A DNA stretch of 64,000 bases from Laetmonice hystrix (GCA_965235115.1 OZ249441.1:17732001-17796000), one strand, 5' to 3'. Positions 41,024 to 51,000 are shown, numbered from the stretch's first letter. The notes: generated by a model from the letters alone, not told the origin. Numbers and translations: made by a program.

Positions 41024-41152
41024 NNNNNNNNNNNNNNNNNNNNNNNNNNNNNNNNNNNNNNNNNNNNNNNNNNNNNNNNNNNNNNNNNNNNNNNNNNNNN
41101 NNNNNNNNNNNNNNNNNNNNNNNNNNNNNNNNNNNNNNNNNNNNNNNNNNNN
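41024..41152. other. Assembly gap (129 N)
   Basis: Run of N, preceded by a (CAGC)-like simple repeat. Confidence 0.99.
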
Positions 41153-46328: not shown

Positions 46329-47587
46329 ATGACGTTGCAGAGGTGGCATTGTGATGTAATGGGGGTATCCAGGGGGCGTTGTTTACCCCGCTGAAGAGAA
46401 GAGGGTGTATGGGCCCTTGGAAATAAATGGAGAATTTTTATACCTTCACTGTAACAGCGGCTTTGTTTTTCTATGGTTTTCTATCCAGAGGGTGTACGTC
46501 TGTCTATAGACTGTAACGTCAAGCTGTCAGGACGGACGGCCGAATGAAAGAAAGCTACACTGGAAAGAAAACAAAATTTGTAGTTGAATAACAGGAAACC
46601 GTATCATTTAAACATTATGTAGCCTTAGGTAAACTATGAGAGAAAGTGGATTGAAATTTTTTATATTCAAGCTGGCTGTTTTGGGGCGTCTTTGGCGTCC
46701 TAAGGAAGAGTATTTTAAACTCAGTCAAAGGAGGTCAAATAAATAAATTGTTTGCATTCTTTGACTTAATTCCTCCTGATCTGAACAAAGGTTTGATTTC
46801 CAACTAAGCAGTGATCTAAAGGTTGCTGCACGTTTCTTGCAGGTTTATGTACGGGTATTTTGGTGAATTAGATCAGTTGTGAATGAATGAACCCCTAAAG
46901 GTGAAACGCAGAATTATTCAGAATACATGTAGTACGTGACTCTAGCCAACTGCTGCAGTAGTTCTGTCTGACACACAAAGAACCCATACCTATAGATCTC
47001 AGAATACATGTAGTACGTGACTCTAGCCAACTGCTGTAGTAGTTCTGTCTGACACACAAAGAACCCATACCTATAGATCTCAGAATACATGTAGTACGTG
47101 ACTCTAGCCAACTGCTGTAGTAGTTCTGTCTGACACACAACCCATACCTATAGATCTCAGAATACATGTAGTACGTGACTCTAGCCAACTGCTGTAGTAG
47201 TTCTGTCTGACACACAAAGAACCCATACCTATAGATCTCAGAATACATGTAGTACGTGACTCTAGCCAACTGCTGTAGTAGTTCTGTCTGACACACAAAG
47301 AACCCATACCTATAGATCTCAGAATACATGTAGTACGTGACGCTAGCCAACTGCTGTGGTAGTTCTGTCTGACACACAAAGAACCCATACCTAAAGATCT
47401 CAGAATACATGTAGTACGTGACTCTAGCCAACTGCTGTAGTAGTTCTGTCTGACACACAACCCATACGATCTCAGAATACATGTAGTACGTGACTCTAGC
47501 CAACTGCTGTATTTTTCTTTTGAAATGCACGGGCATCAGGGGTAACCCAATTACTTTGACAATGTCCCTAAAGAGAAAAGTTGTATA

Positions 47588-47681
47588 GTCCTCTACAGGA
47601 ATCGAACCCAGGCCCTAAGATTACTGCACCCATTCGCATAGCATAAGGTGTCGACACCCATGCCCACAAGGCCACCGCCAC
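47588..47681 (-). mobile_element. tRNA-derived SINE-like head or tRNA pseudogene, copy 1
   Basis: B box GGTTCGATTCC (47598-47608) and A-box-like TGGCCTTGTGG (47664-47674), with T-runs downstream. Acceptor stem does not pair, so it is not a functional tRNA. Confidence 0.6.
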
Positions 47682-47921
47682 TCCCCTAAAAAAGGAGCTT
47701 TGGTGGTCGAGCAGGATAATGGACCCTCCCCCCTACACACATCTTTTTGAAATGAGACGGAATCCATATTTTCCTAGTTAGAGCTACACATGATTTCTAC
47801 CGAACATTGACTGTTAAGGTAATCCTGGCACTGGCGTAGACTGTATTTTTCTTTTGAAATGCACGGGCATCAGGGGTAACCCAATTACTTTGACAATGTC
47901 CCTAAAGAGAAAAGTTGTATA

Positions 47922-48015
47922 GTCCTCTACAGGAATCGAACCCAGGCCCTAAGATTACTGCACCCATTCGCATAGCATAAGGTGTCGACACCCATGCCCA
48001 CAAGGCCACCGCCAC
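47922..48015 (-). mobile_element. tRNA-derived SINE-like head or tRNA pseudogene, copy 2
   Basis: Same sequence as copy 1, shifted by 334 bp. Confidence 0.6.
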
Positions 48016-51000
48016 TCCCCTAAAAAAGGAGCTTTGGTGGTCGAGCAGGATAATGGACCCTCCCCCCTACACACATCTTTTTGAAATGAGACGGAATCCA
48101 TATTTTCCTAGTTAGAGCTACACATGATTTCTACCGAACATTGACTGTTAAGGTAATCCTGGCACTGGCGTAGACTGTATTTTTCTTTTGAAATGCACGG
48201 GCATCAGGGGTAACCCAATTACTTTGACAATGTCCCTAAAGAGAAAAGTTGTATAGTCCTCTGTAGTTCTGTCTGACACACAAAGAACCCATACCTATAG
48301 ATCTCAGAATACATGTAGTACGTGACTCTAGCCAACTGCTGTAGTAGTTCTGTCTGGCACACAACCCATACCTATAGATCTCAGAATACATGTAGTACGT
48401 GACTCTAGCCAACTGCTGTAGTAGTTCTGTCTGACACACAAAGAACCCATACCTATAGATCTCAGAATACATGTAGTACGTGACTCCAGCCAACTGCTGT
48501 AGCAGTTCTGTCTGACACACAAAGAACCCATACCTATAGATCTCAGAATACATGTAGTACGTGACTCTAGCCAACTGCTGTAGTAGTTCTGTCTGACACA
48601 CAAAGAACCCATACCTAAAGATCTCAAAATACATGTAGTACGTGACTCTAGCCAACTGCTGTAGTAGTTCTGTCTGACACACAAAGAACCCATACCTAAA
48701 GATCTCAGAATACATGTAGTACGTGACTCTAGGCTAGCCAACTGCTGTAGTAGTTCTGTCTGAACGTAACTCTAGCCAACTGCTGTAGTAGTTCTGTCTG
48801 ACACACAAAGAACCCATACCTATAGATCTCAGAATACATGTAGTACGTGACTCTAGCCAACTGCTGTAGTAGTTCTGTCTGACACACAAAGAACCCATAC
48901 CTAAAGATCTCAGAATACATGCATGTAGTACGTGACTCTAGGCTAGCCAACTGCTGTAGTAGTTCTGTCTGAACGTAACTCTAGCCAACTGCTGTAGTAG
49001 TTCTGTCTGACACACAAAGAACCCATATACCCATGTAGATCTCCAGACTTGAACCGATGGGCGACCTGCCAGCAGCATTCAGTGTTTAATCACGATATAC
49101 TTAATTTGGAGTCAGCAAATGAAAGTCAGACCCAAGTGGTACCATTTCCTCTTGATAAGACTCGAGTGTACATAAATTTACATACATTAACAGGACCATC
49201 CCATATTATACAGACTATAGATACAGACTATCGGCGGTCAGGGCAGCGGTCAACACTTGTCAATCACCACGTCAATATGACGATATAGAAAATAGGCGAA
49301 TTTTATTCTGAATTAAATACAACACGATCTAAATAAATAGACGAATATAATATGATGACTATGAATATAACGTATCCACATGAAACCAATAGGAGATGAT
49401 AACTCGGTGGCTTTAAGAGGGAGTTTGACATTTAGAAAAGGTTTGACTGCCTCCGTTGTATAGTCTAGTGGCTTGTCGCTTCCCTCTCCTTATCGAGCGT
49501 GCAGGACGTACGGACTGTATTCAGGACAAGGTCGCAAATCTTCAGTTGGTATCCAGAGTCAAATTGATTTTTTTTATATACTAGGGTATGACGTAAAGAA
49601 GTGTATTGGCCGGAAATTATTCAGATTAATTTTAGAAAATATGAAAGCACTATAACGGATAGAGAATTGATGGTACATTCTATAATCGTACTTGATTAAA
49701 TCACTACTGTTATAAGGTCTAGCAGGATGTGATATGATAACTATACCTGGCCGTAAATCTGGATTAACATGCCAAGCGATCTGATTTTCTGAGACTCCCA
49801 TAACATTGTGTTACGGTGGTCATTTCTCTGGTATAGACTGACCCCATGTTATTGTTTAAGGTGCGACTATATATATACACACACACAGGTAACAGACGCC
49901 TGTAGACGTCCTGTCTCGAGGGTGTAGATTTAGGTAAGTATGGGGATTGGCAGGATATATCATGTGTGTGGGCGGTGGGGGTCCCAGCAGTGTAGAGATA
50001 TGAACTAAATAATGTATACGAGTTTGTACCGGTGTGGGCCTTGGCTGCCATATAATTCAGAAATCAACTCCTGATAGGAAAGCTATTGTGTTTTATTGGG
50101 AAAAGAAATCGCAATTTTACTATAAATTAACAAGATATATTAATGAACTGAAGCATAACTGCCTGGTTGCCAACCGTCCCTGCCAATCACTGCTACATTT
50201 ACTGGAGGATTCTAGGCATGTGTCCCTGATCGACAAGACATTAGACCTTGTTGACGGCAATCAGGATTTGATCTCTACTGTCACCATCCCTTTATCTATC
50301 CATCCACGGATCCCAGGAAAGCCTTGGATACAGACCTCGCGGGAGTGTATATGAATAAGTAGGCCAAAGTCGGATCTGAGTTGGCGTTGAGTTTAACAAG
50401 GCAATGAGAATGTCAAGTGGTGGGGGAGTGATGGATGGGGGTGGGTAGGAGGGATTAAAGTCACTTGGTCGCGCCGTGGAGACCACCTCCCTCTACCTCT
50501 CCTTCACCCAGTTTGATTTTATGTAAACCATCGAGTCTTAATTTGAGTATGATAAATATGATATTTACAACATTTTCTTTCCAACAAGTTCAGAGGAAGA
50601 ACCTACCAACTTGTCGTGAATCTGGGTTGGGTTACCTGTGATTAGTTCACGTGCATGTATAGTTGTTGCATGACAGCGTTAGTAGAGGCCGCGAACTTCA
50701 AGCACAGCGATGTCCGATTAGGTGAATAGGTTGCCACCAATTATCACACCCAACTATTCACCATTTCGACCAATTCCATATTGTCTGTTGGAAACATCTT
50801 TGTCGCTAACAGAGATCGCATGTATGTATTTGTGGAAGTCGAGATGTTGATGGAATGTGCTATGTCTACACTGAAGTTTAGCACGTTTACAGCTATACTT
50901 TGAGTGTCTAATGGGTGAACTACAAAGGCTATGTACCGGTATTCATAACCCGGGGGCGAAGCTGATGTAGGGGCTACCTTTGCATGACGATATCTGGGCA

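Follow-up and report, generated by a model that had tools for sequence, protein, structure and literature searches.

How did a short unit with a tRNA-like promoter come to lie as more than two head-to-tail copies inside a minisatellite? The question is raised by a 64,000-nucleotide (nt) stretch of the Laetmonice hystrix genome (GCA_965235115.1, OZ249441.1:17732001-17796000; hereafter the window, all 64,000 nt having been analyzed), in which a 334-bp unit, here called the short element, interrupts an array of 81-bp repeats. We consider it probable that this unit belongs to a young tandem element headed by an RNA polymerase III (Pol III) promoter and dependent on a Penelope-like element (PLE), whose arrays would be generated by rolling reverse transcription on end-joined RNA. 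The observation is in our view real and, at the family level, well explained by a tandem element that is probably Pol III-driven and PLE-dependent and in which no hammerhead was found.

The insertion and its dispersed family

The segment 47507-48262 is periodic at exactly 334 bp and contains two full copies and an 88-bp partial one, 100% identical, which break up an 81-bp minisatellite array extending over 46918-49027. No further copy of the unit was found elsewhere in the 64-kb window. An original prediction made from the sequence of the window had described these copies, the interrupted array and the lack of both a target-site duplication (TSD) and a poly-A tail, and on inspection of both ends of the insertion all of this was borne out. 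The short microhomologies that it placed at the junctions have to be redrawn. On the left, the proposed CTGT is a 5-nt overlap, CTGTA, which is target DNA; on the right, the proposed CT is not needed, because in silico excision of 47512-48262 leaves an intact 81-bp host unit. The insertion is therefore blunt, with neither loss nor duplication of the target. The host array also carries block duplications with a period of 205. Public assembled contigs from two studies bridge the head-to-tail junction. Among the public contigs of four runs, none spans the window array, so that neither its private variant nor an empty allele could show in them; the 2.26-copy state is that of the one genome assembly. 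There is no RNA run among the public runs listed as carrying the sequence, which does not bear on expression. Many unrelated minisatellites of 30-100 bp make up the tandem repeats of the window, which cover about 20% of it, and a stretch of N occupies 41024-41152.

The window insertion is an ordinary, young member of its family. Across the genome (627 Mb), a 21-mer near the left end of the unit has 4,823 matches and the head-to-tail junction 2,454 exact ones, with no match for either reversed control, so that such a junction precedes about half of the units. Loci were sampled in three ways, as the best full-unit matches, as the first pattern matches on contig 1 and as loci near PLE matches; chains of units reaching the edge of a locus were dropped and duplicates with identical flanks were counted once, leaving 164 chains. 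The chain starts at unit position 1-6 in 149 of them (60/70 in the unselected contig-1 subset), and the opposite end is spread over positions 27 to 334, after 0 to 11 full units. Read in the direction of the promoter, the family has a fixed 3' end and 5' truncation, and a fixed end facing a variable one is the signature of target-primed reverse transcription. The target bases C, T, G, T and A are kept in 90, 97, 100, 99 and 95%, respectively, of 139 sampled junctions, and their assignment to target DNA follows from the host variants that are preserved at CTGTA in other copies. Empty sites lie inside a tandem repeat in 60 of the 139 cases (19/55 unselected), compared with the 20% tandem cover of the window, and one 34-bp satellite accounts for 23 of the 60. 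Among 52 comparable satellite sites the insertion is blunt at 17, while 24 are without assignment. Taken together, this is a short, non-coding (longest stop-free stretch, 54 codons), dispersed, high-copy element. Older copies, with 82-89% identity, occur at L074:2453-2717, L069:1326-1489, L084:1306-1468 and L089:7759-7846; the one at L074 already has the head-to-tail junction.

A probable Penelope-like partner and a predicted Pol III head

A search of the genome for GIY-YIG domains revealed a young PLE that likewise forms tandem, 5'-truncated arrays, with a unit of about 5,581 bp. Its open reading frame (ORF) of 759 amino acids (aa) encodes an RVT_1 domain (E 7e-10) followed by a C-terminal GIY-YIG domain (E 8e-8), with a CX2-5CxxC linker between reverse transcriptase (RT) and endonuclease (EN) and two Cys within GIY-YIG. 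Such a linker and GIY-YIG Cys features define the Neptune/Nematis type (PMC8557442), so that the partner is predicted, by its domain features, to be an EN-bearing (EN+) PLE of this type. None of the 120 listed homologues bears a clade name. A motif resembling a hammerhead is located 731 nt into the unit of the PLE. The tail of this PLE has 135 genome matches and its junction 45. At each of the 22 PLE loci whose 3' end is free, this end lies at most 3 nt from the motif on which the short element also ends, and several PLE loci share minisatellites with it. Given this common insertion end and these common landing sites, the short element likely borrows the PLE enzyme. Arrays of the short element were also seen adjoining PLE insertions at L034, L189, L195, L228 and L229, some of them in the same 34-bp satellite.

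The two elements can be aligned over about 115 nt, from ~65 nt before to 52 nt after the fixed end, a module that straddles the head-to-tail junction. Its local alignment score is 75, whereas 500 shuffles gave 22.8 +/- 3.6 (maximum 36) and the best other PLE window reached 39. In the outer stem around the module, 4 of the 25 pairs predicted have changed on either side, in an alignment of 7 sequences that represent about three lineages, and the PLE version of the module folds better than its shuffles (z -3.41). A fixed end, a variable other end, a target motif and a match to an autonomous PLE together indicate retrotransposition, and the short element has the sequence features of a non-autonomous PLE derivative: 3' similarity, a fixed 3' end, truncation, partial tandems and a shared target. 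Judged from these sequences, it is very probably mobilized by the PLE reverse transcriptase and GIY-YIG endonuclease. Upstream of the RT-EN frame, the partner has another ORF of ~800 aa (L212:3544-6060, contig C7 near 18.35 Mb), in which NADAR (E 3e-24) and GDSL/SGNH-like (E 2e-6) domains were recognized; a search of the literature for NADAR together with retrotransposons gave, judging from titles and abstracts, nothing relevant.

The Pol III or tRNA-type head with a perfect B box, already noted in the original prediction, was upheld, with its boxes on the minus strand, where an A-box-like motif lies 55 nt upstream of the B box. The A box of the family agrees with that of the tRNA-Arg of this genome in 11 positions out of 12; in the window copy a single position is altered. 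An internal Pol III promoter with A and B boxes is predicted on this basis. ARAGORN found no tRNA in the window, and at E<=10 Rfam gave only two 11-nt T-loop matches, at the B boxes (E 2.1). Comparisons with tRNAs were made by local alignment because the insert between the A and B boxes makes a global alignment uninformative. Eleven of 75 single-unit copies end at positions 176-183 (binomial p 5e-6), many others extending past them, and this cluster places the predicted Pol III start at unit position 180. Since a run of six T (T6) lies 1 nt upstream of this start, a transcript initiated in unit 2 would be one unit long and permuted: it would cross the fixed end and the 154-bp trailer of its neighbor and stop before the next start. 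What had been described as ~150 bp of upstream sequence would more plausibly be the 3' trailer of a transcript that begins in the next unit. The arms flanking the start and terminator are predicted to pair (8 bp and 5 bp; z -1.7, weak), and the folding of the whole unit is not above that of shuffles on either strand (z 0.20, 0.32 and 0.73). No hammerhead was identified in the unit, with no CTGANGA core on either strand and no Rfam ribozyme at E<=10.

Origin of the tandem arrays

In the mechanism that we favor, Pol III would start in the middle of a unit, pass the unit end into the trailer of the next unit and stop at T6. The PLE protein would bind the module straddling the unit end and nick the target after CTGTA, and the 5-nt match between target and RNA would prime reverse transcription internally. 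Because the module would be complete only in the permuted transcript, reverse transcription would have to begin inside the RNA, and internal initiation has been seen in vitro for the PLE known as PAc (PMC11167929). Moreover, since the module draws on sequence from either side of the unit end, fertility would be limited to tandem copies, and the tandem habit would thereby be perpetuated. Linear RNA would yield copies ending at or before the Pol III start; RNA with its paired ends joined, as a circle or through exact end-to-end transfer, would be copied round and round to give n.x copies. The rolling idea of the original prediction survives in this form, but on RNA and not on DNA.

The positions at which copying stopped speak for rolling. 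A stop at the Pol III start was found in 11 of 105 first passes as opposed to none of 104 later passes (Fisher p 0.0007), and in the unselected subset the figures were 7/37 and 0/31 (p 0.013); long arrays would therefore derive from a template without an effective end at that point. In all seven PLE arrays examined, an array-specific haplotype was present in every compared unit, the comparison covering partial stretches of most units. Among 81 arrays of the short element, 21 are uniform throughout, and in 11 a variant that is present in at most 2 sampled arrays has become fixed. A 207-bp PLE fragment (143 nt before and 64 nt after the fixed end) has formed a 5.4-copy array with the same end at L233:1325-2442 (contig C20, near 10.226 Mb); this array lies in a minisatellite, one of its variants alternates between units, and it has neither a hammerhead nor a Pol III head. 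Junction length variants are found on several haplotypes, but these are mosaic in their turn and do not establish that the variants arose independently. Rolling copying on end-joined RNA is, in our judgment, the likely main source of the arrays, the data being compatible with a covalent circle as well as with an exact end transfer. A more specific proposal remains tentative and slightly on the doubtful side: a PLE-partnered, tRNA-headed short interspersed element (SINE) in which the Pol III start and terminator would take the place of the hammerhead as unit-length device, the ends would be joined with no ribozyme involved and the PLE RT would roll round the circle from an internal 5-nt-matched site; on this proposal the arrays of the 5.58-kb PLE, too, would arise by such rolling. 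These PLE arrays, in which the unit is repeated up to 7 times, were observed at L211-L217, L187-L189, L199-L208 and L228-L229.

Several observations weigh against these proposals. Sixty of the 81 short-element arrays vary internally, some of them mixing subfamilies, and a single template cannot account for such arrays. The higher-order variants of L034, L233 and L234, alternating or of period 3, agree with dimeric templates or with a local duplication of blocks. In 33 of 46 arrays the T6-A junction does not vary, it is mostly of one length, and in several arrays the T7 form of the junction is linked to one marker; this is more fidelity than an imprecise rejoining of Pol III ends in each cycle would lead one to expect. 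The similarity to tRNA is modest, its score being reached by 18 (tRNA-Arg), 26 (Lys TTT) and 6 (Lys CTT) of 2,000 shuffles. The module of the short element folds no better than shuffles (z +0.74), and the search for other partners, such as a long interspersed element (LINE), covered 30 of the 150 top RT loci listed, none of the 30 matching the tail. The unit, as said, has no detected ribozyme, and the 5' triphosphate of a Pol III transcript would need processing prior to ligation.

Among the alternatives, the one that survives best retains mobilization by the PLE but has 1.26 copies inserted, the additional unit being gained later by unequal exchange between the 88-bp direct repeats in a recombination-prone minisatellite and long arrays elsewhere arising likewise. 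The period-205 block duplications of the host array and the alternating and period-3 variants of L034, L233 and L234 speak for it, and unequal crossover is the model cited in the available text of a retrozyme preprint (bioRxiv 10.64898/2026.07.22.740005). However, it still requires a template extending past the Pol III start to produce 1.26 copies, it must explain up to 7 near-identical PLE units of 5.58 kb in 7/7 young arrays, and mutation after insertion would not be expected to produce the variants that the first and the last partial unit have in common (L061, L080 and L033). As a general account we find it unlikely.

At the window locus the same idea has more force. At positions 162 and 211, and only there, both full copies depart from the majority of the family; the change at position 162 falls in the A box, and the 24-mer that contains it is found only at these 2 places in the genome. 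It is damaging to the A box, and the assembly holds no donor for it, a further point against an origin of both copies at insertion; it sits, besides, in the part that would be single-copy in a 1.26-copy precursor. Because both copies share it, the local tandem duplication that the original prediction had listed is a real alternative for the second copy here, by way of a 1.26-copy insert that was mutated and then duplicated within the minisatellite. We regard this as a serious, if minority, possibility and lean slightly towards the two full copies having been made at insertion from a donor that is missing from the assembly.

Read-through without a circle is more improbable than unequal exchange. 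Here linear RNA of donor arrays, produced by leaky Pol III or by host RNA polymerase II, would be reverse transcribed, and arrays would grow by re-insertion at their own CTGTA junction. Faithful inheritance of the junction, mixed arrays that switch at the unit end (L046, L031/L234) and terminator-breaking variants in 22 of 104 chains speak for it, and unprocessed multimeric RNA has been suggested as a substrate of PAc (PMC11167929). Against it, a stop at the Pol III start is seen in none of the 104 later passes, a broken terminator does not go with greater array length (maximum 4 pieces versus 12), and read-through alone cannot carry a new variant to all the units of an array.

From the identical non-integer copies and the lack of a TSD, the original prediction had proposed a single event during minisatellite repair, in which a small circular DNA was captured or the template was switched repeatedly. 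This is rejected on the family data as highly improbable: the unit recurs in tandem form and in one phase at thousands of other sites, the very finding that the prediction had named as speaking against itself, with a single fixed end, a single target motif, 5' ends clustered at the predicted RNA start and a reverse-transcriptase partner with the same end. Equally improbable are a Helitron-like DNA rolling-circle transposon and a misassembled single copy, suggested by the head-to-tail units and by the lack of a contig spanning the window array, since Helitrons target A^T or T^T whereas the target here is CTGTA^G, the homology is to a PLE, and the junction is bridged in contigs of two studies and recurs 2,454 times in the genome. 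The coordinates of the insertion and of its parts are given in Table 1.

Table 1. Features of the insertion and of the host minisatellite in the window (positions counted from its first nucleotide)
Feature	Position	Strand	Remarks
Left arm, host 81-bp minisatellite	46918..47511	.	Target CTGTA^GTAG present in each intact unit
Target bases CTGTA	47507..47511	+	Match element RNA at fixed end; likely primer; conserved in 139 sampled junctions
Insertion proper, 751 bp, blunt	47512..48262	-	Fixed 3' end left, 5' truncation right; element sense is minus
Unit 1, 334 bp	47507..47840	-	
Unit 2, 334 bp, same sequence as unit 1	47841..48174	-	
Partial unit 3, 88 bp, 5'-truncated end	48175..48262	-	
Right arm of 81-bp minisatellite	48263..49027	.	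Resumes in exact register
B box, perfect	47598..47608; second copy 47932-47942	-	From sequence; Rfam T-loop match
A box	47664..47674; second copy 47998-48008	-	Aligns with tRNA-Arg A box of the genome; change at 47668/48002 unique to locus
T6 run, predicted Pol III terminator	47688..47693; second copy 48022-48027	-	1 nt from predicted start 47686 (second 48020)
Sole complete predicted Pol III transcript in array	47688..48020	-	Would comprise unit 2 head, then unit 1 trailer; permuted
Putative PLE-derived module across head-to-tail junction	47789..47905; second copy 48123-48239	-	Local alignment; outer stem with compensatory changes

Known systems and other retroelements of the genome

Judged by description only, the short element resembles SM-alpha of schistosomes and satellite 2 of newts, which are dispersed tandem units of ~330 bp with hammerheads; SM-alpha has a tRNA-type promoter. 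It is also like the animal non-long-terminal-repeat retrozymes, whose non-coding units, 170-400 nt long and arranged in tandem, are related to PLE ends and are proposed to move by means of PLE enzymes and circular RNA (PMC7229834; bioRxiv 10.64898/2026.07.22.740005). Retrozymes, however, have by definition a type I hammerhead in each unit, whereas none was found in the short element, and the ends of its RNA would be set by the Pol III start and terminator. In the portion of the retrozyme preprint available, neither tRNA nor Pol III nor a promoter is mentioned. Non-autonomous PLEs of the Chlamys group, such as MRC1, share with it the multicopy head-to-tail arrangement, 5' truncation and 3' similarity to an autonomous PLE, but they belong to a green-algal clade with an N-terminal endonuclease, and neither a tRNA-type promoter nor the word SINE appears in the part of their description covered here (PMC8557442).

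PAc, a Poseidon PLE of the green anole, is comparable in that it starts internally in a structured RNA, cuts both strands at similar sites and targets its own junction (PMC11167929). It differs in that it starts at a site non-homologous to the cut DNA and prefers ATT, whereas the RNA and target of the short element share 5 nt; the partner of the short element, in turn, differs from PAc in its Cys linker and extra ORF. The origin of tandem and partial-tandem PLE insertions has been called open in what is accessible of two of these reports (PMC8557442, PMC11167929), and with the present family the question of circle versus read-through becomes directly testable in vitro, as it offers a minimal natural substrate set: an RNA of 334 nt, a naturally occurring mini-element of 207 nt and an enzyme that is young and intact and whose target is defined.

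With tRNA-derived SINEs the short element has in common the A and B boxes, the non-coding nature, a 3' part derived from the partner and, in some of them, tandem arrays (PMC11481361, PMC10702118). The SINEs of these reports have LINE partners, their tandem copies are for the most part a minority, and Penelope goes unmentioned in the available text (PMC11481361, PMC10702118). The unit described here is permuted, has neither tail nor TSD, and the LINE partner that marks a SINE was not found for it at the RT loci searched. A literature search, in which subscription journals were thinly covered, gave no title or abstract on a SINE with a Penelope partner or on rolling-circle SINE concatemers. If the partnership proposed here is true, those of SINEs extend beyond LINEs.

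Two other groups of RT-encoding sequences were observed in the genome. A second PLE-like family, with a 789-aa RT-GIY-YIG ORF and an upstream ORF (L226, L227), is clustered near the ends of contigs C2, C6 and C21 and is possibly subtelomeric. Finally, two 1,162-aa RT ORFs lie within a tandem tRNA-Lys gene cluster (C1:71072595 and 71088536) and possibly represent a tRNA-targeting retroelement.

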